A stretch of 64,000 nt of DNA from an uncultured Clostridia bacterium (GTDB lineage Bacteria; Acidobacteriota; Aminicenantia; JAMOAD01): positions 12,317-76,316 of the forward strand of contig CAZWJH010000001.1 of NCBI GenBank assembly GCA_964634755.1, given 5' to 3'. A program made the translations under genes and the position numbers. The notes below the pieces were generated by a model. That model was given only the letters and a program-made list of their open reading frames with translations, searched no databases and was not told where the DNA came from. Shown in pieces: positions 4,251 to 52,926 of the stretch; the stretch's first letter is position 1, and each line of letters starts with the position of its first letter.

Positions 4251-4291
4251 ACAATACTAAAATTTTTTAATATTCCTAGTAAAGGTGGTAA

Positions 4292-4900
4292 ATGAATATT
4301 TATATTGTAAGACATGGTTCAACCGAGTGGAATGAAAAGGATCTTGTACAGGGTAATATTGATATTGAGCTTTCTGAAAAGGGCAGAGTTGAAGTTGAAA
4401 AAACAGCGGAATTTTTAAAAAATATTAGGTTCAAAAGGATTTTTTCAAGTGAAATGAAAAGGGCTTTTCACACTGCTGAAATCATTAATAAAAACAAAAA
4501 CCTTGAAATAACAACAGTGAAAGAGTTAAATGAGCTTGATTGCGGTGAGTGGGAAGGACTTACAATGCAGCAAATCAGAGAGGAGAGAGCTGATGAGTAC
4601 TCAACGCTCAGAAAAAATCCTGAGTATAAGATACCGGGAGGGGAATCATTCATGGATGTCGTAAGAAGGTTTAAGGTCGGATGGGAAAAAGTAATGAGGA
4701 TGAGCAGCGGTGAAGATTTCCTTTTTGTAACTCACATAGTAATAACAAGAGCCTTTCTCTTTACAAACATGGGAATACCTTACGAAAGTGTAAGATCTTT
4801 TATTATAAACAATGCTTCCTTTACTCACTTTGAATTTGATAATGGGAGATACTTTTTAAAACTCTGGAATTACAGGCCTTACGAAAATGGAATATATTAA
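4292..4900 (+). CDS. histidine phosphatase family protein (phosphoglycerate mutase-like, CobC/GpmB type)
   Basis: N-terminal RHGxTxWN motif (IVRHGSTEWN) and a later catalytic His region (VTHIVITRAF). Confidence 0.75.
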   Translation: MNIYIVRHGSTEWNEKDLVQGNIDIELSEKGRVEVEKTAEFLKNIRFKRIFSSEMKRAFHTAEIINKNKNLEITTVKELNELDCGEWEGLTMQQIREERADEYSTLRKNPEYKIPGGESFMDVVRRFKVGWEKVMRMSSGEDFLFVTHIVITRAFLFTNMGIPYESVRSFIINNASFTHFEFDNGRYFLKLWNYRPYENGIY

Positions 4901-11405: not shown

Positions 11406-11429
11406 GGGGGAGTTATAAAAGACTCCCCC
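11406..11429. terminator. GC-rich stem-loop between convergent genes (GGGGGAGT-tataaaag-ACTCCCCC)
   Basis: Perfect 8-bp G/C-rich inverted repeat in a 33% GC genome, between the DUF4340 gene (+) and hydF (-). No clean U-tract follows on either strand. Confidence 0.35.
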
Positions 11430-11596
11430 ACCCCTCCCCCTCCAGAAGAGCTAAAAGCTTTTAAGCATTATAACTATCAAGCGTTGTCTTATGTTAAAAG
11501 AGTGCATACATATATAAAAACAATAGATATAATAGAATAACAGAATAAAATTTCAGGAGAAAAATCTATTATAATAAAGAACCTAACACCTGTTTT

Positions 11597-12877: not shown

Positions 12878-13876
12878 TCAATTTTTCCCTTTGAAATTTC
12901 CAATGGCTTCAGAGGGGAAAAACCCTGCTGAGGATATAAGTTGTTTTATTTTTTGTACATCTTCAAGTGTAGAGTTATCACTTTCATTTTTCCCCGGGTA
13001 AATATTGTAAAGTTTTCTCACCTTTAAAGGTGTGACAGTTGGCATTATTACATTGGCTCCGACTATAAGCCCCTGAACCCTTGCATCCTTTTCAAGAGAT
13101 GCCATCGCACTTGTGGAAGGTATATTAGAGTAAGGGTTCAAGATTCTTAAAAGAGAAATTGTTCTCAATGATTTTTTAAGATCACCGCAGGAGTAATCAT
13201 AAAGAGGTGTCTTATTGTGAGGGATAAATGGACCAGATGCAATCATATGAAGTCCTAAGAGTGAAAGCTCCAGAATATCACTTGCAAGGATTTCATCTGT
13301 CATTCCGGGAAGACCTATAATCAGACCCGAACCAACCTCATATCCAAGTTTCATCAAAACCTCTATAAGCTTAAGCCTCTCCTTAAGCTCTCTTCCGGGT
13401 CTCATCCTTTTGTAAAGCTCCTGATCAAAGGTTTCAACTTTTAGAAGATATCGGTTAGCTCCGGCATCTTTCCATCTTTTAAGCTCATCATCGCTCCTCT
13501 CTCCCAATGAAAGTGTTATCGCGAGTGAATCATCCCCGTATTTTCCCCTTATCTTTTTTATTACCTTTTCAATAAATTCTCCCGTATAATAGGGGTCATT
13601 TCCAGATTGAAGAACAACAGTTCCCATTTTGCTTTTCTTAACCAATTCCACAGACCCTATTATTTCATCAAAATTTAATCTGTATCTTTTAAGCTCACTG
13701 TTTTGACATCTTAAGCCGCAGTAAAGGCACTTTTCTTTACAAATATTGGAAAATTCAACTATTCCTCTCAAATAAACCTCTTTCCCGAAAAGTTTTTCCC
13801 TTACTCTTTTACCTTCGGCAAAAAGGGATTTATCATACTTTCCTTGTAAAAACTCTTTAATCTCTCTTAATTTCAT
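12878..13876 (-). CDS. hydE: [FeFe]-hydrogenase maturase HydE (radical SAM, biotin synthase-like)
   Basis: CxxxCxxC radical-SAM motif CKEKCLYCGLR, BioB-like TIM barrel length (332 aa). Sits in the hydG/hydF neighbourhood. Confidence 0.85.
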   Translation of the reverse strand: MKLREIKEFLQGKYDKSLFAEGKRVREKLFGKEVYLRGIVEFSNICKEKCLYCGLRCQNSELKRYRLNFDEIIGSVELVKKSKMGTVVLQSGNDPYYTGEFIEKVIKKIRGKYGDDSLAITLSLGERSDDELKRWKDAGANRYLLKVETFDQELYKRMRPGRELKERLKLIEVLMKLGYEVGSGLIIGLPGMTDEILASDILELSLLGLHMIASGPFIPHNKTPLYDYSCGDLKKSLRTISLLRILNPYSNIPSTSAMASLEKDARVQGLIVGANVIMPTVTPLKVRKLYNIYPGKNESDNSTLEDVQKIKQLISSAGFFPSEAIGNFKGKN

Positions 13877-15260
13877 CTTTGGTATACCCCAATTTGTGCA
13901 TTCTTTTCGGATTTAAAAGATTCTTTATTTCATCTTCGGAAAGATAATTCTTTAAAATTTCCTCAACAGGCAAATTCTTCACTTTTGATTCCTTTATTAT
14001 TTTATCAACTGTCTCATATCCCAAAATAGGAACTAAAATAGTAGCTATTGTTTTACTGTTTTTTAAATTTTCTCCGCACTTTTCAGGATTGGCTCTTATT
14101 CCCTCTATGCACTTTTCCCTGAATATTCTTGTTGCATTTATAAGAAGTTTCAGGGATTCTAAAAACACTTTTGATAGAAGGGGATAAAACTGATTAAGCT
14201 CAAGGTTGCCCGATGAGGCAATCATTGTAATAATATTGTCATTTGAAATCACCCTTAGAGCAATCTGAGAAACAGCTTCGGGGATAACAGGATTAACTTT
14301 GCCCGGCATTATCGATGAGCCTGCTTGAACAGGAGGAAGAATTACCTCCCCTATTCCTCCTTTAGGCCCGCTCGAAAGAATTCTGAGATCAGTTGAAATT
14401 TTAAAAAGATTGGAAGCATAAGCTTTTATCATTCCGAAGACTTCAACATAAGCATCAAGGTTTTGAGTGGCATCAACAAGATTCTCAGCTCTTGCTATGT
14501 TTAAGCCGGTTATTTTTCTTAAAGTTTCGGTAACTTTCAGAATATAATCCCTTGCGGCACCAATTCCCGTACCTATCGCAGTTCCTCCCAGATTAACAGT
14601 CTTTATTCTTTCTCTTGATTTAAAAATTCTCCATCTATCCCTTGATATTGCCTCAGCATATGCCCCGAACTCCATACCCAGAGTCATAGGGACAGCATCC
14701 TGAAGCTGTGTTCTTCCTAATTTAACAATATCCTTAAATTCAAACTCCTTTTTTTGAAAAGCCTCCTGAAGGGCAGCTATCTCTGGCTCAAGTTTTCTCA
14801 AAAGTTTTAAGATTGCGACTTTCAAAGCTGTAGGGTAAACATCATTTGTTGATTGATGCATATTAACATGGTGGAGAGGATTAATATATTCATAATCCCC
14901 TTTTTCCCTTCCAGCCTTTTCAAGGGCAATGTTTGCTATGACTTCATTAAAATTCATGTTCGTGGATGTTCCTGCTCCTCCCTGGTAAGGATTCACTATT
15001 ATTTGCTCATGATACTTTCCTTCTATAATTTCATTGCAGGCAAAAATAATAGGTTCCGCAATTTCTCTTTTAAGATAACCCAACTCTTTGTTTGTTATTG
15101 CGGCTGCTAATTTTACCTTTGCAAAAGCCACTATAAACTCTTCAGGAATTTTATCTCCAGAAAAGGGAAAATTCTCGTAAGCTCTAAGAGTATGAATTCC
15201 GTAATATGCGTCATCGGAAAGCTTTTTCTCTCCTAAGGAATCTCCTTCAACTCTCATCAA
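13857..15260 (-). CDS. aspA: aspartate ammonia-lyase (fumarase/aspartase class II family)
   Basis: 467 aa with the GSSxMPxKxN signature (GSSIMPGKVNP) and a typical class II lyase N-terminus. Embedded between hydG and hydE. Confidence 0.85.
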   Translation of the reverse strand: MMRVEGDSLGEKKLSDDAYYGIHTLRAYENFPFSGDKIPEEFIVAFAKVKLAAAITNKELGYLKREIAEPIIFACNEIIEGKYHEQIIVNPYQGGAGTSTNMNFNEVIANIALEKAGREKGDYEYINPLHHVNMHQSTNDVYPTALKVAILKLLRKLEPEIAALQEAFQKKEFEFKDIVKLGRTQLQDAVPMTLGMEFGAYAEAISRDRWRIFKSRERIKTVNLGGTAIGTGIGAARDYILKVTETLRKITGLNIARAENLVDATQNLDAYVEVFGMIKAYASNLFKISTDLRILSSGPKGGIGEVILPPVQAGSSIMPGKVNPVIPEAVSQIALRVISNDNIITMIASSGNLELNQFYPLLSKVFLESLKLLINATRIFREKCIEGIRANPEKCGENLKNSKTIATILVPILGYETVDKIIKESKVKNLPVEEILKNYLSEDEIKNLLNPKRMHKLGYTKDEIKRD

Positions 15261-15513
15261 TATCCTTCCTTAGCTTGCTTAAAAGTTTTTTAATTTTTAA
15301 TCTATCAGGCTTTTCACAGAAAAGCAAATACCTCTCATTTATCCTGTACATTGAGGGAGGCTCAAAACCTGAGGGCTTTTCACCACATACAAAAGAGATT
15401 CTTCTTCCCATTTTCTCGGCAATCCAGAGTCCACCGCATTCATATTCGGCGGAAATCTCTTTAAGATATTTCTCTATTTTATTAAAAGTAGAGATCTCTT
15501 TCGCCATTCTCAA
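15247..15513 (-). CDS. small hypothetical protein (88 aa), translationally coupled between hydG and aspA
   Basis: Overlaps the hydG stop and the aspA start. Contains two short C(G)EKP repeats. No recognisable family. Confidence 0.35.
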   Translation of the reverse strand: MRMAKEISTFNKIEKYLKEISAEYECGGLWIAEKMGRRISFVCGEKPSGFEPPSMYRINERYLLFCEKPDRLKIKKLLSKLRKDIDES

Positions 15514-16969
15514 TTCTTGTCAAATATTCTTTCAGTTTTTTGTATGCTTTTGGCATCTTTTCCTTAACTTCATTGAGTTCTCTCTCTATAAGAGCATTTC
15601 CTATCTTTGCCGTATCCTCTGTTGCAAAATCCAGAAGCCATTCCTTAAAGGTTGTTATTGCATTTAATTTGCAGTATTTTCCTTCTGTTCCCGCTCTGAG
15701 AAGGTCCATTATGCATTTTCCGGTTCTTCCGCATCTGTAACCCGCAGTACAAAAAGATGTTATGTATCCCATTTTTGCAAGATCTCTTATAAGTTCATCG
15801 AGTGTTCTCGGATCCCCGATTAAAAATTGCTGCCTTTCGAGCTCCTGCTCAGTGTATCTGTCACTGTAAGCTCCTATCCCTATCCTTGTGGATGCATCAG
15901 TTTGAGTGATTCCCAATGACATTACCCTGTCTCTTATCTCTTTAGGCTCTCTCGCAGTTAATATCATTCCTGTATAAGGAATCGCAAGTCTCAGCACAAG
16001 AATTATTTTTTCAAAATTCTCATCACTTACCGCATATTTCGTTTTATCTATGTAAGGTGTGTTTGCGGCAGGCTCAAGTCTCGGAAAAGAAACAGTATGA
16101 GGACCTATTCCAAACTTTTTCTCAAGTTCAAGCGCATGATACAAAAGACCCATAACCTCAAATCTCCAATCATAAAGGCCGAAAAGAGCGCCTATTCCAA
16201 CATCATCCACTTCAGCTTCAAGGGCTCTGTGCATACAATAAAGCCTCCATTTGTAATTTCCCTTTAAAGTATTCTGAGGATGAACCATTTTGTATGTTTC
16301 ATGATGATAGGTTTCCTGAAATACCTGATATGTTCCTATACCCACCTCTTTAAGCCTTCTGAGTTCATCAATCTGAAGAGGTGCAGCATTAACATTTGCT
16401 CTCCTTATCTGCCCGTAACCATTTCTTACATTTACTTTCACATCATAGATTGTTCTCAAACTATTTTCAATATAATTAACATCGGTTTTCGGATGCTCTC
16501 CGTAAACAACAATAAGTCTCTTGTGCCCTATCTCCCCGGCAAGCACCTCAGCCTCTCTTCTTATTTCCTCTTCATTTAAAACCCTTCTTTTTATAATTTT
16601 ATTTTCAAGTCTGAATCCGCAGTAAAGACAATTGTTAACACAATAATCTCCCATGTATAAAGGAGCAAAGGTTACTATTCGGTTATCGTAAACCTTTAAT
16701 TTGATTTTAAGAGCAACCTCCTTCATCTCTTCGTAAAGCTCCGGGTCTTTGAGGTTTATAAGCATTGCAGTTTCATCCGGAGAGAGAGTTTCAATTCTCA
16801 AAGCTTTGTCAAAAATCTCTCTTATTCTTACGGGATCCGGGTCTCTGTTCTCCTCTATCTTTCTCCAGATCTCCTCATCATTGATAAAATCATGCTCCCC
16901 GTCCATATACTTTGTAATCTCTTCCTCTTTTATCCTGTTTGCTATCCAGGAATTTAAACTTTCTTTCAT
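15482..16969 (-). CDS. hydG: [FeFe]-hydrogenase maturase HydG (radical SAM tyrosine lyase, ThiH-like)
   Basis: N-terminal CNNCLYCGF radical-SAM motif and the C-terminal auxiliary-cluster motif CTAGYRCGRTGKC. 495 aa. Confidence 0.9.
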   Translation of the reverse strand: MKESLNSWIANRIKEEEITKYMDGEHDFINDEEIWRKIEENRDPDPVRIREIFDKALRIETLSPDETAMLINLKDPELYEEMKEVALKIKLKVYDNRIVTFAPLYMGDYCVNNCLYCGFRLENKIIKRRVLNEEEIRREAEVLAGEIGHKRLIVVYGEHPKTDVNYIENSLRTIYDVKVNVRNGYGQIRRANVNAAPLQIDELRRLKEVGIGTYQVFQETYHHETYKMVHPQNTLKGNYKWRLYCMHRALEAEVDDVGIGALFGLYDWRFEVMGLLYHALELEKKFGIGPHTVSFPRLEPAANTPYIDKTKYAVSDENFEKIILVLRLAIPYTGMILTAREPKEIRDRVMSLGITQTDASTRIGIGAYSDRYTEQELERQQFLIGDPRTLDELIRDLAKMGYITSFCTAGYRCGRTGKCIMDLLRAGTEGKYCKLNAITTFKEWLLDFATEDTAKIGNALIERELNEVKEKMPKAYKKLKEYLTRIENGERDLYF

Positions 16970-16982
16970 TTTAATACCTCCT

Positions 16983-17384
16983 TTAAAAAGCTATTATCTT
17001 TGAGTTGTACAGCAAATTTCTTAATTTTTTTGTTTCTTGATGAAGACGCACGGGTCGTGCGTCTCTACATGCTTTTGGCTTTTGACTGCTCGGCTTTTGT
17101 TGACTTTCGACTTTCAACTTTTGACTTTCGACTTTCGACAACAATGTTTTTACCTCAACTCCCCTGAGCTGTCCGAGTTTACCGGTCAATGCGCCCAATT
17201 CATCTGTAGTACCCTCAAAAATTATGGAAATCACTCTTACGGATTCCTCTTTGAAAGGAATACCCAATCTTCCCTTGATCAAATGGAAATAGGATGAAAG
17301 GATTTGATTGATTTTTTTATAATTTTTGGGATTGTAGACAAATATACCTATTATCCCGAATCTCTTTTTGTTTTCCATTTTCAC
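16983..17384 (-). CDS. TM1266-family putative iron-only hydrogenase system regulator (ACT/NikR-like fold) with a repeat-encoded low-complexity C-terminal tail
   Basis: The first ~82 aa match the small hydrogenase-cluster regulator family (GIIGIFVYN...GRLGIPF...VISIIFEG). The C-terminal ~50 aa (KVESQKLKVESQQ...) is encoded by a heptamer tandem repeat plus a GC hairpin. RBS GGAGGTG upstream. Confidence 0.55.
   Translation of the reverse strand: MKMENKKRFGIIGIFVYNPKNYKKINQILSSYFHLIKGRLGIPFKEESVRVISIIFEGTTDELGALTGKLGQLRGVEVKTLLSKVESQKLKVESQQKPSSQKPKACRDARPVRLHQETKKLRNLLYNSKIIAF
17042..17065. other. GC-rich hairpin (GAAGACGCACG-ggtc-CGTGCGTCTC) about 75 nt upstream of the hydG start
   Basis: 9-10 bp perfect G/C-rich inverted repeat with a 4-nt loop. 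Lies inside the 3' tail of the regulator ORF and upstream of hydG. Confidence 0.5.
17071..17140. repeat. 7-nt tandem repeat array: (GCTTTTG)x2 then (TTCGACT-like)x6
   Basis: Period-7 direct repeats visible by eye at 17099-17140 (gttgact ttcgact ttcaact tttgact ttcgact ttcgaca). Translated as 7-aa periodic KVESQ repeats in the regulator tail. Confidence 0.6.
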
Positions 17385-17432
17385 CTCCTTGGGTCAGGCA
17401 AAAGCCCTTCCCTCAGAAAACTCTTATTTTGA

Positions 17433-17663
17433 TTAAATTTTACTGTATGCTATTTTTAAATTATCAATTTCTTTTAAATCTTTTAAAAGCTCCTCAAAAA
17501 TTTCCTCTTCTCCCTTAAAAACCACACTCAAAATATAGCCATGATTTTCTGTTTGTGGCAAGCCCATTCTTCCCAATATAAATTCAGCATTTTTGTGCAG
17601 TATTTCATTAATCTCAGGAGCCCTTTTGTTTGCATCCATCAAAATAGTAATTGTCCCTATCAT
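17433..17663 (-). CDS. second TM1266-family small regulator paralog (76 aa)
   Basis: Same pattern as the neighbouring gene (ILMD...ILGRMGLP...ILSVVFKGEEE). Immediately downstream of the hydA stop. Confidence 0.55.
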   Translation of the reverse strand: MIGTITILMDANKRAPEINEILHKNAEFILGRMGLPQTENHGYILSVVFKGEEEIFEELLKDLKEIDNLKIAYSKI

Positions 17664-17664
17664 T

Positions 17665-19473
17665 TTAATGATGTTTGTGAGTTAATTCCTTAACACAGGT
17701 TCCCTTTTCAAGATCTCTTTCAAAATAACAAGTATGAAGAAGTCTGTGAGCAATATCTGAGCCGGGGGATTTGAGGAACTTTTCATAAACTTTTTTAATT
17801 GCCGGATTTTCATGAGAGCATCTCATCGGAAGTTCTCTGTCTTCTTTGTAAAGTCCCTCTCCTCTTCTTGCCCTTCTTGCAAGATCACTTCCATAGGGCT
17901 GTCCGCCTCCACCAACACAACCACCGGGGCATGCCATTATTTCAATAAATGCATACTCACTCTTTCCGGTCTCTTCTATCTGTTTTCTCACTTTTGTTAA
18001 AAGCTCTCGTGCGTTTCCGAGCCCGTGGGCAACTGCCACCTTAAGTTTCATTCCTGCAATTTCAAGCTCTGCTTCTTTTATACCCTGCATTCCTCTGACT
18101 GCTTCAATATCAAGGTTCTTAAGATTTTCTCCTGTGAGCAAAAAGTATGCGGATCTTACAGCAGCTTCCATAACACCTCCGGTAGCTCCAAAGATGGTTG
18201 CAGCTCCCGTATATGCTCCCATAAGATCATCCGCCTTTTCCTCAGGAAGGTTCTTAAAATCTATACCTGCTTCCTTTATCATTCTGACAAATTCTCTTGT
18301 GGTTAAAACATAATCAACATCCTGATACCCTGAATCTCTCATCTCAGGTCTTCGAGCCTCAAATTTTTTAGCTGTACAGGGCATAATTGAAACACTGACT
18401 ATTTTTGCAGGGTCAATACTGTACTCTTGAGCAAAATATGTTTTGGTTAATGTTCCGAACATTTGCTGAGGTGATTTGCAGGTTGAAGTATATTTTGCAA
18501 AATCAGGAAAATATGTTTCCATAAATTTAATCCAGCCGGGGGAACAGGAAGTAATGAGAGGAAGAGGTCCCCCTTCTTTTATTCTGCCAACAAGCTCAGT
18601 ACCCTCTTCCATTATCGTAAGATCAGCTGAAAAATTTGTATCAAAAACATAATCAAAACCTAATTTTTTAAGAGCAGCATACATTTTCCCCACGGTAACA
18701 GTTCCGGGTTCCATTCCGAACTCTTCTCCCAATGTAACTCTGATAGCAGGAGCTTCCTGAACAACAACAACTTTTTCAGGATCAAGCAGAGCTTCCCAGA
18801 CTTCATCTATCTCTGACCTTTCCCTTAATGCTCCTGTTGGACAAAATACGGTACATTGACCGCAATTCACACAAACACTGTTTCCAAGACCTTCTTTAAA
18901 AAATGTATTTACATTAACTTCAAATCCCCTGTCAGCAAAAGTGATTGCATGAACAGTCTGAACTTCATTACATACGGTTACACATCTTCCGCAGGCTATA
19001 CATTTGTTTGGGTCTCTTATAATAGCAATGCTTGTTTCATCAAGAGGTTTATATTCAAGGATTTGATCCAAAGTTTTTGTGTCAACTCCCATATTGTTAG
19101 CAAGCTCCTGAAGTTCACATTTTCCGTTAGCAACACAGCTCGGACAGGAAACATCATGGTTGGATAATATCATCTCTATAACAGTCTTTCTCATCTGTCT
19201 CAATCTAACTGAATTAGTCGTCACCTTCATTCCTTCACTTACAGGTGTACAGCAGGATCTTTTCGGTACTGGAGAGCCTTCGACTTCCACAACACAAACC
19301 CCACATGCTCCGGTGGGCTTTAAATCAGGATGATAGCAAAGAGTCGGAATTGTTGCTCCGACCTTTTTTGCTGCTTCAAGGATAGTCGTTCCTGCCGGAA
19401 CTTCAACTTCTTTACCATCAATGTATAATTTTACTTTATCAGGCATATAAGACCTCCTTATTATTTTTTTCAT
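17665..19473 (-). CDS. hydA: [FeFe]-hydrogenase catalytic subunit HydA (multidomain: 2Fe-2S, His-ligated 4Fe-4S, 2x 4Fe-4S ferredoxin, H-domain)
   Basis: L2 MPCTAKKFE and L3 EIMACPGGCVGGGGQP are canonical. L1 is TSCSPGW, non-canonical. N-terminal plant-type 2Fe-2S cysteines, HxxxCxxCxxxxxC, then CIACGRC and CVNCGQC. The real start is likely ATG at 19446 (MPDKVKLYIDG), overlapping the hydB stop. Confidence 0.9.
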   Translation of the reverse strand: MKKIIRRSYMPDKVKLYIDGKEVEVPAGTTILEAAKKVGATIPTLCYHPDLKPTGACGVCVVEVEGSPVPKRSCCTPVSEGMKVTTNSVRLRQMRKTVIEMILSNHDVSCPSCVANGKCELQELANNMGVDTKTLDQILEYKPLDETSIAIIRDPNKCIACGRCVTVCNEVQTVHAITFADRGFEVNVNTFFKEGLGNSVCVNCGQCTVFCPTGALRERSEIDEVWEALLDPEKVVVVQEAPAIRVTLGEEFGMEPGTVTVGKMYAALKKLGFDYVFDTNFSADLTIMEEGTELVGRIKEGGPLPLITSCSPGWIKFMETYFPDFAKYTSTCKSPQQMFGTLTKTYFAQEYSIDPAKIVSVSIMPCTAKKFEARRPEMRDSGYQDVDYVLTTREFVRMIKEAGIDFKNLPEEKADDLMGAYTGAATIFGATGGVMEAAVRSAYFLLTGENLKNLDIEAVRGMQGIKEAELEIAGMKLKVAVAHGLGNARELLTKVRKQIEETGKSEYAFIEIMACPGGCVGGGGQPYGSDLARRARRGEGLYKEDRELPMRCSHENPAIKKVYEKFLKSPGSDIAHRLLHTCYFERDLEKGTCVKELTHKHH

Positions 19474-21058: not shown

Positions 21059-21519
21059 TTTTCCCTCCTCTTTTCCTCAATAATCGATTTTAATCTTTCG
21101 GGGGTAAGATTTCCATAAACTTTATTGTTTATCATAATCGCGGGAGCAACGCCGCAAACACCTAAGCATGAGCTCATTTCAAGAGTGAACAAACCATCTT
21201 TAGTAGTTTCCCCGAATTTAATCCCTAATATTTTCATAAGTTCCTTTGAAATAGTAGTGGAGCCCATAAGATGACAGGGAGGGGATTGACAAACTCTTAT
21301 GACATATTTTCCCCTTGGTTTAAAAGCATACATTGAATAAAATGTTGCAACTCCATGAACAGTGCTCAAAGGAAGTCCCAAATATTCTGAAACAGCTTTC
21401 AAATCTTCCTTTGAAAGATAATGTTCCTCTTTCGAATCCTGAAGTTCATGGAGAATTGCAAGCAAATTTTCACTCTTTTTCTCGTATTTTTCCAATATTT
21501 CTTTCATTTTACACCTCAC
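21055..21519 (-). CDS. hydC: hydrogenase subunit HydC (NuoE-like thioredoxin-fold 2Fe-2S)
   Basis: CQSPPCHL...CLGVCGVAP NuoE-type 2Fe-2S motif. Overlaps the hydB start and the upstream fusion-gene stop. Confidence 0.85.
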
Positions 21520-24500
21520 AGCATCTCTTCAAGGGATTTATGTTTTTTTTCAGCCTTTTTCTTTAATAAAGACTTACCTCTATCACAGTGAAGACATCTT
21601 CTTGCCTCTTCTATAGCATCTTCAAGACTCATTCCCTTGTTAACTTCAAGAGCCATTGATCTAATTCTTTCCTTTACATCAGAATACTCAGGCTTTTTTC
21701 TTGAGATTGTCTTAAGATACGCTTCCTCATCATAATCAGGAACATATTCGCCTCTCTCATCCTCAAAAAGTTTACCTTCATATCCGAAATATTTATCAAT
21801 CGCAATGGCAGCTTTTCTACCTTGAGCAACAGACTCAATCACTGTGGAAGGATAAATCGCATCTCCTCCAGCAAAAACACCTTCTTTCGAAGTCATCATT
21901 GTTTCCGGGTCTACCTTAAGATGCCCGTTTGAATAAAGTTCAAGCCCTGCATGAAGTTTGCTCATAGTAAGTTTTTGACCAATACAGGGAATCACAAGAT
22001 CAGCTTTAACTGTAAACTCAGTTCCCTCAACAGGAACAGGTCTTCTTCTCCCGCTATCATCAAATTCACCCAATTCTGTTCTTATAAATTTAACAGCTTT
22101 TACTTTTCCGTTTTCATCTTTTATTATTTCAAGAGGATTTGTTAGAAACTCAAATTCAATTCCCTCTTCTTCACTCTCTACTATTTCTTCCTGTAAAGCT
22201 GGCATTTCAGCTTTTGTTCTTCTATAAACAATTTTCACATTCTTAGCCCCAAGTCTTAAAGCTGTTCTGGCAGCATCTGTGGCGGTTGAACCTCCGCCGA
22301 CGACAATCACATTTTCACCAACTTCAACATCTTCTCCCAAATTTATCTTTCTCAGAAAATCTATACCACTTATAACTCCTTCGACATCTTCTCCCTTGAT
22401 ATTCATTCTTCTCGAAGTATGAGCCCCTGTTGCAATGAAGACAGCATCAAAGCCTTCTTTTTTAAGTTTGTCCAAGGATTCAACTCTCGTATTGAGCCTA
22501 ATTTCAACACCAGCTTTTTCTATTATTTCTATCTCTTTTAGCGTCACTTTTTTGGGTAATCTGTACTCCGGTATTCCAACTGTCATCATCCCACCCGGTA
22601 TTGGCAGAGCTTCAAAAACAACGGGTTTGTATCCCATTCTTGTAAGATAAAAGCCACATGCAAGGCCAGCAGGACCGGCACCTACAATCGCAATCTTTTC
22701 TTTTTTGGGATTCTCCGGAGGAGCAAATTTAGGCGGCTCACTTAAAGCCCAGTCTGCAAAAAGTCTTTTAACCTCTCTTATTGCCACAGGCTCATCAAAT
22801 TTACCTCTTTCACACCTTTTTTCACAAAAGGCGGGGCAAACTCTAGCGCAAACCGAAGGAAAAGGATTATTCTTCATATGGGTGTAGTATGCAAGCTCGA
22901 GTTTGCCCTCTGCCATATAGGAGATATATCTTGCTGCGTCCACATTAGCCGGACAATTGTTTTCACAAGGAGCATAAAACAGTGAAGCACAAACTCCCGC
23001 TTCACACTCCTTATCAACAATATGCTTTATATATTCATCTCTGAAATATTTTAAAGTCGATAAAACAGGATTTGGAGCTGATTGCCCTAATCCGCAAAGG
23101 GAGGTAGCTTTTATTGTTTCACCCAAATCCTGAAGTCTGTCAAGGTCCTCCAATTTACCCTCTCCCTTTGTTATTCTGTCAAGAATTTCATACATCTGTC
23201 TTAAACCTACTCTACAGGGAGAACACTGTCCGCAGGATTCTTCTATTGAAAATTCAAGAAAGAATTTTGCCATATTAACCATACAGGTATCCTCGTCCAG
23301 AACAATAAGCCCTCCTGATCCCATAATTGATCCCAGTGCTTTTAATGATTCATAATCAATTGGAGAATTCAAAAATTGTTTGGGAATACATCCACCAGAG
23401 GGCCCTCCTGTTTGAACAGCTTTAAATTTCTTACCATTAGGTATTCCTCCTCCGATATCATAAACAAGTTCTCCGAGAGTTATTCCCATAGGAACTTCCA
23501 CAAGCCCGGTGTTTCTGACATTTCCCGAGAGAGCGAAAACTTTTGTTCCTTTACTCTTCTCGGTTCCAATCGAAGCAAACCATGAAGCACCGTTCAAAAT
23601 TATGTGTCTTATATTAGCAAGAGTCTCAACATTATTAATTAAAGTGGGTTTACCCCATAATCCCTTTTGTGCGGGATAAGGAGGCTTGGGTCTCGGCTGC
23701 CCTCTTTCTCCTTCAATAGAAGCAATAAGAGCTGTTTCCTCTCCGCAAACAAAAGCTCCTGCTCCCATTCTAAGCTCTATATCAAAAGAGAAATCTGTCT
23801 CAAAAATATTTTTTCCTAAAAGGCCTAATTCTTTAGCCTGTTTAATAGCTATTTCAAGTCTCTTTATTGCAAGGGGATACTCAGCTCTAACATAAATATA
23901 GCCCATATTTGCGCCAATTGCATACCCTGCAATTGCCATACCTTCCAAAACAGCATGGGGGTCTCCTTCTAATACAGCTCTATCCATAAAAGCACCGGGG
24001 TCTCCCTCATCAGCATTACAAACAACATATTTTTGATCGCCTTTTGAAGCTCTCGTAAACTTCCATTTTAATCCTGTAGGAAACCCTGCTCCTCCTCTTC
24101 CTCTGAGACCAGAATTTATCATCTCTTCGATAACATCTTCAGGCTTCATCTCTGTTAAAACCTTCCCCAAAGCTTCGTATCCTCTTTGGGCAATATACTC
24201 ATTTATATTTTCAGGATCAATCTTACCGCAGTTGGAAAGAACTATTTTTTTCTGTTTCTCAAAAAATGGAATCTGTTTTTTCTCTTCAACTATCTTTCTT
24301 GCTTCCGGGGTTTCCCAGAGAAGCCTTTTTACGGGTCTTCCCTTTAGAAAGTGTTCCTCCACCAATTCCTCTATGTCTTCTTCTTTAAGCTTTATATAAA
24401 AGGAACCATCTGGATAAACAACCATAACAGGCCCCAATTCGCAAGGTCCCATACACCCTGTTTCCACAACATTTATTTCATCGGAGAGCCCTTTTTCCTC

Positions 24501-24593
24501 TATTACTTTAATCAATTTATCTTTTATTTCATGGCTATGAGAGGAGATACAGGCTCCCCCTCCGCATACTAAAACATCAAGTCTTTTTGCCAT
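21516..24593 (-). CDS. NuoF-like flavoprotein fused to a glutamate synthase small-subunit (GltD/NfnB-like) NADPH oxidoreductase domain
   Basis: 1025 aa. N-terminal Trx-like 2Fe-2S domain with its Cys retained (CGGGAC...ETGCMGPC), NuoF FMN motif [25 protein letters not shown], then GltD-type 2x 4Fe-4S ([14 protein letters not shown]; [13 protein letters not shown]) and a Rossmann [18 protein letters not shown] domain. Confidence 0.8.
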
Positions 24594-46615: not shown

Positions 46616-47767
46616 ATGATGAGAGAAAAATTATCAAAAGAAGAGCTCTTAAACCTTATAAAAAAGGTTTTTCCAAATTATGATACCTCTGATAAACTTG
46701 CTTTTTTAATTGATATCCCAAGAAAAAACAGTGATGATAATGATAAGTGGAAAGAGAGAAGGGAAATAGCAGCTGAGTGGGTGAAAACTTTGTCCGATAA
46801 CCTGAAAGAACTTAAGTTGAAAGCTGTTGATTTAATAGGTTATCGTGCAGTTTCCGCAAACAATGCTGACCTTCCTTCCGAAGGGTTTTTGCTTTCTTTG
46901 GAAAATTTGCCGGAAAATTCTGATGAGCTTTCAGGATATAAAAAGCTTTTCTTTGAAAAAATATTTGAAGATTACAAAATTTTTATTGCAATGACACAGT
47001 ATTCAGCCACAGCCCCACTAAAAAACAATGCTAAAAAGTATCTTTTCAGAGCGGCAACAATGCCCGGATTTTCATCTGAAATGATCCCGGCTCTTAGAAT
47101 AGATTATGAAAAGGTTGCTCGAAAAGTTAGATTTGTAAAAGAAAAATTGGACAGGGCCAATTTTGCGGAAGTTCTTTTTATAATTAAAGGAAAAGAGGAG
47201 ATAAGAGCAAATTTTGATCTTAGATTCAGAAAAGTTCATGAAAGCTCAGGCAGATTCCCTGAGAAAGGAACAGCCGGAAATCTTCCGAGCGGGGAGGCAT
47301 ACATTGTCCCTTATGAAGGAGAGTTTGATGAGAAAAGTCAAACCGAGGGAGTAATTCCCGTTCAAATAGAAGGGGATATTGTTTATTACAGGGTTTCAGA
47401 AAACAGAGCTTTTGAAGTTTTCGGAGAGGGTAAAAATGTTGAAATTGAAAGAGAGCATCTTAAAAGAGAGCCAGCCTACGGAAATATTGCGGAATTGGGT
47501 TTCGGAGTTTTATATGATTTCGGGCTTAAACCAATAGGAGAGATTCTTCTTGATGAAAAATTGGGATTTCACATTGCCTTTGGAAGAAGTGATCATTTCG
47601 GTGGGCAGGTTGGTCCCGAGGATTTTTCATCTCCTGAAGAGGTCATTCATCTTGATAGAATTTACATAAAAGAGCTTCAACCTGATGTACTCGTAAAAAA
47701 ATTAACTCTAAAATATGAAAACTCAGAAGAAGTTCTTATAAAAGACAATAAAATAATAACAGAATAA
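46616..47767 (+). CDS. hypothetical protein, possibly an M29 (aminopeptidase T-like) metallopeptidase
   Basis: 383 aa. The C-terminal GFHIAFGRSDHFGG resembles the HIAxG motif of M29 aminopeptidases. Weak recall-based call. Confidence 0.3.
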   Translation: MMREKLSKEELLNLIKKVFPNYDTSDKLAFLIDIPRKNSDDNDKWKERREIAAEWVKTLSDNLKELKLKAVDLIGYRAVSANNADLPSEGFLLSLENLPENSDELSGYKKLFFEKIFEDYKIFIAMTQYSATAPLKNNAKKYLFRAATMPGFSSEMIPALRIDYEKVARKVRFVKEKLDRANFAEVLFIIKGKEEIRANFDLRFRKVHESSGRFPEKGTAGNLPSGEAYIVPYEGEFDEKSQTEGVIPVQIEGDIVYYRVSENRAFEVFGEGKNVEIEREHLKREPAYGNIAELGFGVLYDFGLKPIGEILLDEKLGFHIAFGRSDHFGGQVGPEDFSSPEEVIHLDRIYIKELQPDVLVKKLTLKYENSEEVLIKDNKIITE

Positions 47768-47773
47768 AAGACA

Positions 47774-48379
47774 ATGGGAGAAAACAAACTTCCCGAAGAG
47801 TTTAAAAGGGTTCTTAAAGATAGTGATAGAAAAGATGGTTATATCGTTGATGCGGAAAAGCTTAAAAAAGTGATTTCAGAAAAAGGCGAGTATGAATATC
47901 TTGGAATGATTTTATCTTTTGCTTTTAATTCCGGAGAAAAGATAGAAAAACTCAGTGAAAATAATAAAAAACAAACAATTGATTTGATGTTCTGGCTATT
48001 AAATAATATGATTCTTGATTATTCAAATACAAATGAAATATTTTCAACTCTCAAACTCTTTGTGAAATTAGGATTAGCCCTTGAGCAAATAGAAAACAAT
48101 CTCATAATGCTCTCATTTGATTCATTAAAAATTAAGAACGAAATTTCAGAAAGTGATATTCGTGAAAAGATAGATGAGCTAAGCGATATAGTTAAATTAA
48201 AGAAAAACTACGGATGTCTCTGCAATCAGCCATTTCTTTACGGGGATCCGGAAGAGGAAATAAAAAGAGGACTTTTAAAAATTGTTGATAAAAAGATCAC
48301 GGAAAACAAAAAAGAATACACTGCCATAAAAGAGACAATCCTAAATGCTCCCTCTGTGGAACAAAGCTTAAACATATAA
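47774..48379 (+). CDS. hypothetical protein (201 aa)
   Basis: K/E/N-rich, no recognisable motif. Same strand and close spacing to the previous gene. Confidence 0.3.
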   Translation: MGENKLPEEFKRVLKDSDRKDGYIVDAEKLKKVISEKGEYEYLGMILSFAFNSGEKIEKLSENNKKQTIDLMFWLLNNMILDYSNTNEIFSTLKLFVKLGLALEQIENNLIMLSFDSLKIKNEISESDIREKIDELSDIVKLKKNYGCLCNQPFLYGDPEEEIKRGLLKIVDKKITENKKEYTAIKETILNAPSVEQSLNI

Positions 48380-48489
48380 GAATAATAGAAGATAGAATAA
48401 TTACGAGATGGGAGAAGATAAATTAATATGGAATTACACATGTTGAATGAAATTTTAAAAAGATATAATATTCTATTTTCAGGAGGAAT

Positions 48490-50568
48490 TTGATGAAAAG
48501 GATAGGTTCAATAATATTAGCTCTTCTTTTTACAGCAAGTGGAATGCTCTTTTCGGGAGATTTTCCGTGGAATTTTGAAGAATTGCTCTTTTTAACTCTA
48601 TTTTCTCACTATGAGTCAATAGGGGGAGAAAGAGCAGGTAATTTTTTGCTTGATTTTGAAGGTATAAATCTCACATCTCCCATAGACGGTTCACCCTTTT
48701 TGATTCCATCCCTTCATCTTTTTTCAGACTTAAAATCCGACACTTTCTTTTCACCGGAATTTCACATTTCAGAAAATAAAAGTGTAAGAGAAATAGGATT
48801 TTACAGAGACGGCCTATTACTTAAAAGCGGAGAAACAACTGATATAAGAAATTCACTCTTTTATTCAAATAATATATCCGAAAAAATTTTTTTTAATGTG
48901 AGTATTTTTAATTTAGGAAATAGCCATTATCACTATGATAATGTATTTCATGGCCCTGCCGCAGAATTTTTCATGAAGTACAGGGGAGAAAATTCAGTAC
49001 TTAATTTTTATTCATTTTTCTCAAAAACAAATGATTCCTCCCTTGAGTTTGATGAACTTGAGCCACCTAAAAAAGTAAAATTCAAAGATGATGCTTTTGC
49101 TTCCTATACAAAACTCTTTACAGGTTTTTCTTATACTTATGAAAATAGCAGTCTTAAATTTAGCTCAAAATTATCATATGGATTGAAGAATCAGGATGGA
49201 GAAAAAAATGGAATTGCTCTATTTGACAGTAACACTAATAGCTGGAGCGGAAATTTTCCCTTTGCCATTTCCTCCTCTTTTTTAACCATTAACAACTCCA
49301 TCTCCTTAAAGCTATCAAATGAAGATAATTTTAAGATATTTCCCTCTTTGAATTTTGAATACCTTTCCGGAAAAACAAAGAGGGAAACCTCGGGTGAGGG
49401 AATAATTTATGATAATAGTATTAAAATTTCAGGATATGGATATGAGCTTAACTCAAGTTTGATGAGAATTTCACCAAGTTTTCGCTTTTTAAAAGGCCTT
49501 GGGGAGGATTCCATAAACCTTACACTTAACATAGGCTATGAACTTTTATGGTACTCGGGAGGAACCCCAGGTAAATCAATCTTCTTGAACTCTCCCAGAA
49601 TACTTTCAAAAATAGATTTTCAATCTGAAAAGATAAAAGGTATGATAGGGGTTTCTTATTATTCCACACCAATTACCCTTGCAAAACTCCTTCCTTTAAG
49701 CAATAATTTTTTCAATTATAAAATCTCATTTTTTGAAAACGGCATCTGGAATGAGATTGAAATATCACCCGCTTTAAAATATCATTATGACAACAGCTCC
49801 TCTTATAACAGGACAAAAAAAGCCTTCTTTTCCCTTTCTTATGGAGATAAAAACTCAAAAATAACTTTCAATTCAGTACTTTCGAAAACTTCCGATTTTT
49901 GGGATAGAATGGATAATTCTTCATCATATATAAAAGAAGGAAACATCTTTATAAAAGATAAAAACGGAGAGATAATAAATATTGGAACTCCCTCAAAAGA
50001 AAAGGATAATATCCTGTTTTCTCCCGAAAGAACCTTTTTAGGACTAAACCTGTGTTTACTGCTAAATTCCGAAAGTTTAAAATTTATTGCCGGGGTAACA
50101 TACATGAAAACAACCGGCACATATGATAATCAGTATATATCAATACTTGGAGAGTACGGCTCCGATTCAATCATTTTTTTATCTCCGAACATTCAGAACA
50201 AACTAATAGACAATTTTGACCTCAGCTTTGGTAATGGAATTAAACTTTACTCAAAGATTAAATACCTTCTTTCCGAAAATCTAAATGCAGAGCTCTTTTT
50301 TGTCCACCTCCCTCCTGTAAATTATTTCACATATACAAACGGAGTATCTCCTATAAGCTTTGTGCCAGATTCAAGAGAAAAGAGCACTTCTTACAATAAT
50401 CTGTCCATAGGTTTTAATTATTCACCAAGTAAAATAAAAGTTTACCTTTATGTAAAAAATATCTTAAACTCAACTGCTCCTCTGTTATTCCCTGTGAATG
50501 ACAGCTCAGAATTTTTAAAAACAACATCAGGTCTGGGGCTTTTTGTTGGACTTGTTTACAATCTTTAA
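48490..50568 (+). CDS. large secreted S/N/Y/F-rich protein (putative outer-envelope beta-rich protein)
   Basis: 692 aa, signal peptide (MMKRIGSIILALLFTASGMLFSG), alternating polar/aromatic beta-strand-like composition, no Cys. Confidence 0.4.
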   Translation: MMKRIGSIILALLFTASGMLFSGDFPWNFEELLFLTLFSHYESIGGERAGNFLLDFEGINLTSPIDGSPFLIPSLHLFSDLKSDTFFSPEFHISENKSVREIGFYRDGLLLKSGETTDIRNSLFYSNNISEKIFFNVSIFNLGNSHYHYDNVFHGPAAEFFMKYRGENSVLNFYSFFSKTNDSSLEFDELEPPKKVKFKDDAFASYTKLFTGFSYTYENSSLKFSSKLSYGLKNQDGEKNGIALFDSNTNSWSGNFPFAISSSFLTINNSISLKLSNEDNFKIFPSLNFEYLSGKTKRETSGEGIIYDNSIKISGYGYELNSSLMRISPSFRFLKGLGEDSINLTLNIGYELLWYSGGTPGKSIFLNSPRILSKIDFQSEKIKGMIGVSYYSTPITLAKLLPLSNNFFNYKISFFENGIWNEIEISPALKYHYDNSSSYNRTKKAFFSLSYGDKNSKITFNSVLSKTSDFWDRMDNSSSYIKEGNIFIKDKNGEIINIGTPSKEKDNILFSPERTFLGLNLCLLLNSESLKFIAGVTYMKTTGTYDNQYISILGEYGSDSIIFLSPNIQNKLIDNFDLSFGNGIKLYSKIKYLLSENLNAELFFVHLPPVNYFTYTNGVSPISFVPDSREKSTSYNNLSIGFNYSPSKIKVYLYVKNILNSTAPLLFPVNDSSEFLKTTSGLGLFVGLVYNL

Positions 50569-50780: not shown

Positions 50781-52007
50781 ATGACATTAAGAGAAGAGCT
50801 TCTTAAAATCTTAAAATCCGTGGAAGAGCCGGATTTTACCTTTGTGGAAAAGGACTTTCCACCTGTTTTCACAAGGGCTGAAGGTATCAAAGTTTATGAT
50901 TCGGAAGGTAATGAATATCTTGATTTTTCATCATTTTTCGGGGTGAGTTTTACAGGGCACTCTCAGTCCTTTGTAAAGGGAGAAGCTGAAAAAGGATTCT
51001 ATCATGGTCTGGGAGACCTCATACCATCTGAAGAAAAAATCCTTCTAATGAAAAAACTTTCGGGAATCATAGGAGAAGGATATAAAGGGATTCTTTCCCA
51101 GAATGGCTCCGATGCAGTTGAAGCCTGCCTTCGCTCTGCTTTTCTTTACAAAGAGAGCAGAAAAATTATAGCCTTTGAAGGAGCATATCACGGAACATCA
51201 CTGGGAGTACTTTCCGCGACATACTCAAATAAATTCAGAAAAAGATTTGAAAAGCTTTTGCCCTTTGAAACAAAATTTTTTCAGTATTCTGTAAATTCCA
51301 TTTCAGAAATAAGAAATTTTCTAAAGAACAATGAAGTTTCTGCAATTATAATAGAGCCTGTTCAGGGAAGGGCCGGTATTAGAATAGCTGAAAAAGAGTT
51401 TTTACTCTCTTTGAAAAAATTATCAGAAGAATTTGATTTGCCTCTGATTTTTGATGAAGTATTCACAGGATTTGGGAAAACCGGAGAATATTTTGCAAAG
51501 GATTATTTCGGAATAAAACCCGATCTTATCGCCTTTGGAAAAGCTTTAAGCGGAGCTTTCCCTCTTTCAGGATGTTTCGGAAAAGAGAGAATAATGAATC
51601 TATGGGGAGAAAGCAAGGGAGAAGCTTCCTTTACCTTTACTTTTTCCGGAAGCCCATTTTTTTCAAGAGTTGCTTTAAGAAACCTTGAATTTCTGGAAAA
51701 ATTAAATTTTAGAAAAAAAGTCAGAGAAATTGAAAATTTGATGAAAAAAGGATTATCCGAATTAAAAAACAAATATAAAAATAAAATAAAGGAAGTAAGA
51801 GGAATAGGAGCAATCTGGGGAATTGAACTTTATCATCCTATAGATTCATTTATTGTATTTAAAAAACTTCTTAATGAAGAGAGGATTATCACTCTTCCTT
51901 CAGGAGAGAAAGGAGAAACCATAGAAGTTTTACCTCCTGTAATTGTAAAAGAAATAGAGATTAATAAATTCATTAACTCTCTGGAGAAAGTCCTTGAAAC
52001 TCTTTGA
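50781..52007 (+). CDS. class III pyridoxal-phosphate aminotransferase
   Basis: 408 aa. DEVFTGFGKTG motif and the PLP-lysine region (AFGKALSGAFP). Typical AT-III length. Confidence 0.8.
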   Translation: MTLREELLKILKSVEEPDFTFVEKDFPPVFTRAEGIKVYDSEGNEYLDFSSFFGVSFTGHSQSFVKGEAEKGFYHGLGDLIPSEEKILLMKKLSGIIGEGYKGILSQNGSDAVEACLRSAFLYKESRKIIAFEGAYHGTSLGVLSATYSNKFRKRFEKLLPFETKFFQYSVNSISEIRNFLKNNEVSAIIIEPVQGRAGIRIAEKEFLLSLKKLSEEFDLPLIFDEVFTGFGKTGEYFAKDYFGIKPDLIAFGKALSGAFPLSGCFGKERIMNLWGESKGEASFTFTFSGSPFFSRVALRNLEFLEKLNFRKKVREIENLMKKGLSELKNKYKNKIKEVRGIGAIWGIELYHPIDSFIVFKKLLNEERIITLPSGEKGETIEVLPPVIVKEIEINKFINSLEKVLETL

Positions 52008-52926
52008 TGAAATAAAAAATTATACTGAATATGGAAAAACCTTTAATGAGGAACTTGCCATTGAAATTGCAAATTTTCAATTAAAAAACAATACTTTTTA
52101 CAAAAATTATGCGGAAAAAGTTGGAATAAATAAAATAAAAAGGATTGAGGATATACCATTTCTTCCGGTGGAATTTTTTAAAAATCAGAAAATTTTTTCT
52201 CTAGAAAAACCGGATGGTTTTTTTATGTCAAGCGGCACAGGAGGAGAAAGAAGTAAAGTCTTTTACAATAAAAAAACTCTTGAGCTTTATGAAATTTCCG
52301 CTCTTAAAAGCTTCCCTTTCAAGGATAAAAAGATATACTCTCTTATTCCTCCCTTTTCAATAGCAAAAAATTCATCACTATCTTTTATGCTTGATATTTT
52401 TTCAAGGAATTTAAATTTAGAGTATTTGAACAAAAAAAGTTTTGAAATGGATGAAAAAATATTTTTCAGGATTTTAAAGGCAGAAACAGAAGAGAATAGT
52501 GTTCTCTTTTTAACATCCCTTCAGCTTTTTAAATTATCCTCTTTAAAAAAAGGAATAATTACCAAAAAGTTTACAATTATAGAAACCGGTGGATACAAAG
52601 CTACAAAAAAGATTTACAGAAGAAATGAGCTTTACAAATTTGCTAAAAAAGTCTTTATAAACTCTGATTTTTTCTCTGAATACGGAATGGCAGAGCTTTT
52701 CTCACAGTTTTATACTGTTTCAAAAAACAGAGATTACACATTTTCACATTATAATTTTGTTTTCACAAAAAACGGGAAAGGCTTATTAAAAGTTTTTGAT
52801 TTTGCAAATATGGGAACAGTATCAGCTCTGTATATTCCGGATTTTATTGTAAAGAGGGGGAATGAGTTTGATGTAAAAGGAAGACTTATATCTGAAATAA
52901 GAGGTTGCGGCTATGTCTTCAAATAA
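51994..52926 (+). CDS. LuxE-like acyl-protein synthetase (adenylate-forming)
   Basis: 310 aa. IEDIPFLPVEFFK...FFMSSGTGGERSKV matches the LuxE pattern IDDIPVFPTSVFK...FTSSGTNGLKSQV. IIETGGYK matches the LuxE IITGGGWK. Overlaps the aminotransferase stop. Confidence 0.6.
   Translation: MKLFDEIKNYTEYGKTFNEELAIEIANFQLKNNTFYKNYAEKVGINKIKRIEDIPFLPVEFFKNQKIFSLEKPDGFFMSSGTGGERSKVFYNKKTLELYEISALKSFPFKDKKIYSLIPPFSIAKNSSLSFMLDIFSRNLNLEYLNKKSFEMDEKIFFRILKAETEENSVLFLTSLQLFKLSSLKKGIITKKFTIIETGGYKATKKIYRRNELYKFAKKVFINSDFFSEYGMAELFSQFYTVSKNRDYTFSHYNFVFTKNGKGLLKVFDFANMGTVSALYIPDFIVKRGNEFDVKGRLISEIRGCGYVFK

Follow-up and report, generated by a model that had tools for sequence, protein, structure and literature searches.

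Rickettsia palindromic elements (RPE), as well as other repetitive extragenic palindromes (REPs) and miniature inverted-repeat transposable elements (MITEs), are found inserted in frame within protein genes. In Escherichia coli, intercistronic stem-loops formed by REPs and bacterial interspersed mosaic elements (BIMEs), such as that of malE-malF, stabilize the mRNA that precedes them or influence translation close to stop codons. Tandem heptanucleotides, in turn, make up contingency loci, as exemplified by the ATCTTTC repeats of the Haemophilus hmw promoter. Traits of these three systems come together in a 64,000-nucleotide stretch of DNA (hereafter, the window) from an uncultured bacterium of GTDB class Aminicenantia (assembly GCA_964634755.1, contig CAZWJH010000001.1), at the junction between the hydrogenase maturase gene hydG and the second of two small TM1266-family genes encoded between hydA and hydG. 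There, an imperfect heptamer array, a GC-rich palindrome and a spacer block extend the reading frame of the small gene by 49 codons (Table 1). A first, model-made annotation of this DNA (the original prediction) had proposed that it was either a cis-regulatory element of hydG that happened to be open in frame or a genuine, slippage-prone protein extension. Sequence comparison points instead to repeat DNA that was inserted recently and made a small protein longer, an event that would be comparable to REP and RPE insertions in genes and mostly ordinary. It is probable that a lineage-specific insert split an ancestral ATGA overlap between the two genes and is read through as a C-terminal tail, in a largely accidental event.

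The palindrome of this insert resembles a GTAG-tagged REP-like element. GTAG-tagged REPs have stems of 6–13 bp and loops of 2–3 nt, are located downstream of open reading frames (ORFs) and occasionally within genes, and some of them donate a TAG stop codon (Di Nocera et al., 2013; PMC3733652). TnpA-REP subclasses have been reported in the Bacteroidetes, with a patchy distribution that is compatible with horizontal transfer (Quentin et al., 2018; PMC6006769). The palindrome shares with the GTAG-tagged class the GTAG head, a GC-rich stem within the same size range and a 3-nt loop. Its copies likewise sit mostly downstream of genes and between co-directional genes, the window copy lying at a would-be intergenic junction, and they show head-to-tail clusters (L093, L094, and L099), an occasional intragenic location and the donation of a TAG stop (L096). 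It differs in that its consensus pairs GTAG with CTAC, while the REP GTAG is unpaired, and in a copy number that appears low, with no additional copies in the flanks of the other palindrome loci either.

Comparison with the remaining systems is similarly mixed. As in RPE, an otherwise intact conserved protein gains tens of residues from a palindromic repeat of 100–150 nt read in its frame, and shorter homologs in relatives expose the insertion. Unlike RPE, the addition would arise through C-terminal read-through of a destroyed stop/start overlap and not internally, and the insert as a whole is not known from any other locus. As in the E. coli REP and BIME arrangements, a stable stem-loop lies between genes that are probably cotranscribed and presumably have to be expressed differently (the structural and regulator genes of the hydrogenase vs. 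the maturases), but here the stem-loop falls inside a predicted translated frame and ribosomes should melt it. As in heptanucleotide contingency loci, a 7-nt array is found near a gene start and one-unit changes shift the frame, yet this array is both short and imperfect, with no observed variation in length.

A lineage-specific insertion at the regulator-hydG junction

Comparison of orthologous junctions, which had been proposed along with the original prediction, reveals neither the heptamer array nor a conserved tail of the same length in close relatives. The closest orthologs of the second TM1266-like gene (paralog 2; P0002–P0006, with 87, 84, 78, 74, and 74% identity) are all 86 amino acids (aa) long and end in ...LLSKEVLK or ...LLSRIKGE. 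In 11 loci of the Aminicenantes clade, the TGA of the regulator overlaps the ATG of hydG (ATGA, −4 nt), and in loci with this overlap the hydG Shine-Dalgarno sequence, AAGGAGGT, falls within the final codons of the regulator. Aligned with these orthologs, the window loses DNA homology at TCG AAA G (codons 81–82) and regains it at GAGGTATTAAAATG, with ~151 nt in between and AAAG at both flanks. This insert constitutes the sole sizeable gap in a tightly packed operon. In 80 further genomes, TM1266 C-termini reach 2–5 aa past the domain, and the longer tails that appear sporadically are unrelated and at most ~24 aa in length.

The nearest relative, a Candidatus Aminicenantes metagenome-assembled genome (MAG; L003/L013), shows 86–92% DNA identity in the flanking genes and 87% identity in the regulator. 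Its regulator stops after 86 codons and is followed by a 96-nt spacer without the palindrome, of which only the last ~60 nt are held in common with the window (~78% identity). At this same TM1266-hydG junction, L003 carries a perfect (ATGAAAA)x3.3 heptamer array (4281–4303) whose unit is unlike that of the window, and this independent array suggests that the junction is slippage-prone. The insert of the window is 100% identical in two independent assemblies deposited in different archives (L001 and L002), and the 131-aa protein is carried by six contigs. A blastn-short search for mobile copies of the whole insert, using a 171-nt stretch against the window and all loci, recovered the same locus in L001 and L002 only. 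What the original prediction did not contemplate, and what these alignments indicate, is hence a lineage-specific insertion that splits the ancestral ATGA overlap between the regulator and hydG.

The C-terminal extension of ~50 aa noted in the original prediction is present and amounts to 49 aa (residues 83–131), which are extra to the family because both its profiles and the TM1266 structure (PDB 2NZC) end at residue ~80–82. Its predicted translation includes the peptides LKVESQQKPSSQK, DARPVR, and NLLYNSK. On a codon log-odds score trained on 37 long window genes, the conserved domain scores +0.17 and the tail −0.17; the latter lies below 99.7% of genuine in-frame 47-codon windows and inside the off-frame distribution. 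AlphaFold2 models residues 1–84 as a confident beta-alpha-beta-beta-alpha-beta fold, with block-mean predicted local distance difference test (pLDDT) values of 78–95 over residues 1–80. Low confidence begins at residue 85, and pLDDT stays below 50 over residues 85–131. The tail, rich in Lys, Gln, and Ser, is probably disordered according to this model. No homologs of the tail were found among paralog 2 homologs, and the two remaining frames of the insert hold just 1–4 stops. The suggestion that this DNA is merely open in frame fits these observations, given the absence of the tail from every ortholog, its non-coding-like codons and its predicted disorder. The best reading of the sequence is that the tail is a by-product, tolerated at the C-terminus, and no conserved functional extension.

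Longer TM1266-hydG spacers, of 160–390 nt, are seen in the Syntrophomonadaceae and their relatives (L017, L025, L027, L029, L037, L050–L054, L059, L061, L079, and L088), and could hold leader or regulatory elements.

The palindrome and the heptamer array

The palindrome belongs to a dispersed family. Its 29-nt consensus is (T)GTAGAGACGCACG-ACC-CGTGCGTCTCTAC(A), and the window copy reads catGTAG-AGACGCACG-ACC-CGTGCGTCT on the coding strand, with the GTAG head kept and the CTAC arm lost. The original prediction placed a 10-bp hairpin at 17042–17065; the hairpin is there, but its perfect stem comprises 9 bp (arms 17044–17052 and 17056–17064, 3-nt loop) and its tenth pair is a G-U pair in RNA. With a folding energy of ~−15 kcal/mol as RNA, it is unique within the window, where none is expected. 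The exact 21-nt core is found in seven Joint Genome Institute (JGI) metagenome stretches (L093–L099), none of the seven being a hyd locus, and the match runs into the GTAG/CTAC flanks. Core and flanks together are found in six contexts other than the window, and the carriers range from 36 to 52% GC. L093 and L099 belong to a single Bacteroidales MAG, and a neighbor protein in L095 and L097 clusters with a Verrucomicrobiota MAG.

Most copies are intergenic, just past genes or between co-directional genes (L094, L095, L096, and L098). The copy in L098 lies between two genes, that of L094 is followed by T8, and the L096 copy supplies the stop codon of the gene with the TAG of its GTAG head. The L094 copy follows a gene with what is presumably an rpoD-like C-terminus, and the C-terminus of the L096 protein is taken here to resemble a type IX secretion sorting domain. 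Head-to-tail clusters of 2–3 copies with a period of 46–48 nt are present at L093:1–330, L099:3900–4260, and L094:200–300, and the tandem copies include point-mutated variants. In the Bacteroidales MAG, two contigs also have in common a repeat of ~250 nt or more with an 11-nt array (TCTTTGGTCTA x3.5) located ~60 nt from the palindrome cluster. Elsewhere, no viral contig of IMG/VR carries the palindrome, no plasmid in PLSDB matches it at better than 82% identity, and the other ~1.9 Mb, out of 1.97 Mb of compared sequence, hold no further copy. Searches against Rfam 15 yielded only chance-level matches (E ≥ 0.78) and tRNAs in the region and the whole window, and nothing at four palindrome loci within L094–L099. 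In the literature, the two half-sites occur together only in unrelated primer and short hairpin RNA (shRNA) papers, and they are absent from the supplements of PMC3733652.

The heptamers identified in the original prediction as (TTCGACT)x6 do form an array, for which Tandem Repeats Finder reports a period of 7, 5.4 copies, 87% matches and a score of 62. The count of six was nevertheless generous, for only three units are exact, perfect units never follow one another more than twice, and the array is really a 19/21-nt unit repeated twice, encoding KVESQKL/KVESQQK. A 14-mer taken from it has four matches against 0.68 expected, and the 64 kb contain just one other array of period 7. The GCTTTTG repeats, originally given as two, occur three times (17071, 17078, and 17093). 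Contrary to the claim that all these features lie within 120 nt of the hydG start, they are found 75–95 (hairpin), 102–130 (GCTTTTG), and 133–170 nt (heptamers) upstream of its ATG (16969). The array begins where ortholog homology ends, and its first unit consists of the Ser-Lys codons of paralog 2 itself, a configuration consistent with slippage in situ that started from the gene's native 3′ end.

The same heptamer is also found in phages. Perfect (GTCGAAA)n arrays of 3 to at least 12 units are present in 64 viral contigs of IMG/VR (L100–L163; e.g., L103:860–911, L124:402–481, and L138:6478–6536). These arrays are hypervariable, because copy number differs between contigs with identical flanks (3/4/5; 9/10/12). 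They lie mostly 1–30 nt past the stop of a 200–295-aa ORF and ahead of a GC hairpin. Eight out of ten such ORFs match PF16677 (P22 gp3-like small terminase), four of them above the gathering score, and the arrays may be terminase-binding or pac-related repeats. A special enrichment of the heptamer in phages by raw count was rejected, since two control heptamers of the same composition occur in 97 and 16 contigs vs. 64; long perfect arrays, with matches 21 nt apart, are seen for GTCGAAA only and are absent for both controls.

Weighing the alternatives

The sequence of events that best accommodates these data can be outlined as follows. In the ancestor of this Aminicenantes-like lineage, the second TM1266-family gene would have ended in ...LLSKEVLK-TGA, its stop overlapping the start of hydG (ATGA) and its last codons harboring the ribosome-binding site for hydG. 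On the branch leading to the window genome and L003, extra DNA would have built up at the junction. In the window this DNA comprises a degenerate 7-nt microsatellite, probably seeded on the TCNAAAG end of the gene, a slightly decayed copy of the GTAG-headed REP-like palindrome, which is present in other phyla too, and an older 3′ spacer block common to L003. Because the insert has no in-frame stop, ribosomes translating the regulator would continue for another 49 codons and across the hairpin, terminating at a TAA directly adjacent to the AGGAGG of hydG and 13 nt away from its ATG. Such read-through may preserve termination-reinitiation coupling to hydG and keep the hairpin melted, although hydG could also initiate independently because it retains a strong ribosome-binding site of its own. 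By analogy with the intercistronic REPs of E. coli, it is plausible that the hairpin has a secondary effect on the stability of the mRNA, or on polarity between the hydA-regulator part of the operon and the maturase genes.

Several observations weigh against this account. Composition-matched shuffles leave a 49-codon frame open in only ~3% of cases, which would allow for the openness being selected, a figure to be read with the caveat that the locus had been flagged precisely for being open. In L096, a (CACTTTC)x4.7 array abuts the same palindrome, and the corresponding unit of the window, read on that strand, is GACTTTC; the two elements may thus belong to one unit, a hint against a product of in-situ slippage. 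The many copies per genome that characterize REPs are not seen either, with one copy (allowing up to 8 errors) in about 76 kb, made up of the 64-kb window and about 12 kb of flanks from the same organism, and no Y1 transposase (PF01797-type), the RAYT enzyme cognate to REPs, was found among the 59 window ORFs. Lastly, most REP families are species- or genus-restricted, and a near-identical 29-mer across Aminicenantes-like, Bacteroidales, and Verrucomicrobiota-like contigs is unusual.

The alternative that best withstands the comparison, even if unlikely, is that the insert is a dedicated cis-regulatory module in which the heptamers bind a protein, perhaps the TM1266 paralogs themselves, and the hairpin attenuates, terminates or processes the transcript, with the open frame being incidental; such a module would set maturase expression relative to hydA. 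The location of the insert 75–170 nt upstream of hydG, in the only large gap of the operon, the strength of the hairpin, the independent heptamer array of L003 at the same junction and the long TM1266-hydG spacers of other phyla are all in its favor. An operator or attenuator devoted to hydG, as initially envisaged, is nonetheless unlikely because neither the heptamers nor the hairpin is shared even by the 87%-identical relative. They are missing too from the 11 clade loci, which hold no conserved operator or iteron array upstream of hydG, and the unit carried by L003 is another one. On the coding strand, the stem runs into UCAUCAAGAAAC, with no U-tract, and a scan for sigma-70 promoters and intrinsic terminators returned nothing in the insert. 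Furthermore, the hairpin is a generic palindrome of unrelated genomic contexts, and profile and structure matches reveal no recognized DNA-binding domain in either TM1266 protein. A Bacteroidetes-type promoter (TTTG-N19-TAnnTTT) in the shared 3′ block was considered and dropped, as the window contains two such matches against 2.1 expected. A regulatory role of the insert is possible, but unsupported.

Somewhat less credit can be given to a composite mobile element, in which the palindrome and an adjacent, iteron-like (NACTTTC)n array would have been mobilized together by an enzyme of the HUH/Y1 type and inserted where the gene ends. Beyond the L096 array, this explanation draws on the 11-nt arrays close to the palindrome clusters of L093 and L099, on the AAAG that flanks the insert and on an alignment of the window and L096 flanks that scores 31, above all of 500 shuffles (mean 15.3, maximum 27). 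That alignment, however, is limited to the arrays, and comparable scores turn up by chance when kilobases are scanned; flank homology beyond the heptamers was thus rejected. Relative to the palindrome, the L096 array is on the side opposite to that of the window array, and L094, L095, and L098 lack an array altogether. In addition, no compared sequence contains a further copy of the 171-nt stretch, and the first heptamer coincides with native Ser-Lys codons.

It is improbable that the tail is a genuine, slippage-tunable extension in which gain and loss of heptamers toggle the regulator between long-tailed and short forms by phase variation. Simulated slippage does generate suggestive products: loss of one unit yields a protein of 85 aa, near the ancestral length, that ends at a TGA within the array, gain of one unit yields 106 aa and ends exactly at the TAG of the palindrome, and changes of ±3 units stay in frame and use the present stop. 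The hypervariability of the same heptamer in phage contigs and the rarity of so long an open frame among shuffles point in the same direction. Against them, contingency loci consist of perfect units with copy-number polymorphism, and the array of the window should slip rarely because no more than two perfect units occur in a row. The window, L001, and L002 are identical, the 90% cluster contains this protein alone, alleles of 85 or 106 aa are absent among paralog 2 homologs, and the tail combines non-coding codon usage with a lack of homologs. The slippage-prone extension of the original prediction thus found no support.

There is a similarly slim chance that both ideas apply at once, with the palindrome and (NACTTTC)n forming a hitherto undescribed, low-copy, cross-phylum composite element whose heptamer number switches translational coupling between regulator and maturase. 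Were this so, the switch would have three outcomes: an early stop at 85 aa, a stop at the palindrome TAG with the hairpin folded, and read-through to the hydG ribosome-binding site, as in the present allele. An assembly or library artefact, such as a hairpin adaptor or a chimeric join, could account for the same perfect palindrome in many unrelated assemblies but is extremely unlikely, given that independent assemblies in different archives yield an identical locus and that the copies occupy sensible intergenic positions and include point-mutated tandem variants, a T8 tail (L094) and a donated stop codon; the palindrome, moreover, matches no adaptor known to us.

Operon context and significance

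On the minus strand, the operon runs hydC-like, hydB-like, hydA, TM1266-like paralog 1, paralog 2, hydG, an 88-aa ORF, an aspartate-ammonia-lyase-like gene, hydE, and hydF. The coordinates of the features relevant to the insert are collected in Table 1.

Table 1. Features of the hydA-hydG region, in window coordinates.
Feature	Position	Strand	Remarks
hydA	17665-19473	-	NADH-dependent [FeFe] hydrogenase
TM1266-like paralog 1, 76 aa	17433-17663	-	Divergent member; PF21699 45.7 bits; TIGR03959 53.5 bits
TM1266-like paralog 2, 131 aa	16983-17378	-	PF21699 95.1 bits; TIGR03959 100.6 bits
Conserved domain of paralog 2, codons 1-82	17133-17378	-	Family profiles; PDB 2NZC, E=5e-13; alignments to orthologs
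Tail-coding read-through, codons 83-131 + TAA (16983-16985)	16983-17132	-	Coincides with the ~151-nt insert (about 16981-17131)
Imperfect heptamer array	17102-17139	.	GACTTTC on +, GTCGAAA on coding strand; first unit overlaps conserved Ser-Lys codons
Degenerate ...AAAG / GCTTTTG short direct repeats	17069-17101	.	Join the array to the palindrome
GTAG-headed palindrome footprint, 29 nt	17040-17068	.	Perfect stem 17044-17064, loop ACC on coding strand; outer CTAC arm decayed
Spacer 3' block common to window and L003	16970-17030	-	~78% identity; holds hydG Shine-Dalgarno AGGAGG (16977-16982)
hydG	15482-16969	-	TIGR03955 464 bits; start matches orthologs at residue 1

The presence of two small TM1266-family paralogs between hydA and hydG, recognized in the original prediction, is borne out by PF21699 matches to both genes. 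Paralog 2 clears the cutoffs of PF21699 (gathering threshold, 27) and TIGR03959 (60.8 bits), while paralog 1 clears that of Pfam and falls under the NCBIfam equivalog cutoff. Both match a family (PF21699/TIGR03959; PDB 2NZC) that is associated with [FeFe]-hydrogenase and maturase genes, and they lie in that canonical hyd neighborhood (hydA...hydG/hydE). Paralog 1 starts 1 nt past the hydA stop and is kept as a 76-aa gene in all related loci. Paralog 2 aligns with 2NZC (86 aa) over residues 6–82 and is 45 aa longer than any close relative. Its ATG at 17378 is preceded by AGGAGG and gives the 131-aa form on public record (P0001); the alternative 133-aa, GTG-start form has no exact public record, and its GTG sits within the AGGAGG site. 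A literature search for "TM1266" returned no functional study, and the regulatory role of the family, annotated as "putative iron-only hydrogenase system regulator," is itself only putative.

Other features of the window were also recorded. The 88-aa ORF (15247–15513, minus strand) extends into the 3′ end of hydG on one side and into the start of the aspartase-like gene on the other. Neither Pfam nor NCBIfam has a match for it, yet it is called at 86–88 aa in the same position in all related loci (L003–L009), and it may be a conserved uncharacterized small protein of the hydrogenase-maturation cluster. The aspartate ammonia-lyase-like gene (13857–15260, minus strand; NF008909, 645 bits), located between hydG and hydE and conserved in related loci, may have a link with the chemistry of H-cluster maturation. 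A 1025-aa fusion (21516–24593, minus strand), which adjoins the hydABC genes and lies upstream of a second NuoE-like gene, combines NuoF-like (Complex1_51K, NADH_4Fe-4S) and GltD-like pyridine-nucleotide-disulphide oxidoreductase domains. Between hydF and a convergent DUF4340 gene, a hairpin (GGGGGAGT-N8-ACTCCCCC; 11406–11445) that precedes a C-rich tract (CCCCCACCCCTCCCCCTCC) probably acts as a bidirectional terminator. Lastly, five consecutive or near-consecutive ORFs of 383, 201, 692, 310, and 338 aa (46616–50568 and 51994–53929, plus strand) have no Pfam match at E<1e-5.

For the TM1266 family, the most immediate consequence concerns annotation. The public 131-aa "regulator" (cluster P0001) would consist of an 82-residue conserved domain and the read-through of inserted DNA, and its tail should not be read as a family feature or as a regulatory domain. 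The one observation out of the ordinary is a near-identical 29-nt palindrome in at least three phyla, yet apparently at low copy, which, if confirmed genome-wide, would be atypical of REP elements. For the hydrogenase-maturation operon, the locus offers what appears to be a clean, datable case of repeat DNA breaking a tight ATGA overlap, with the upstream frame running on. The natural series formed by the ancestral overlap, the L003 spacer and the window insert would be well suited to testing the dependence of hydG on translational coupling.

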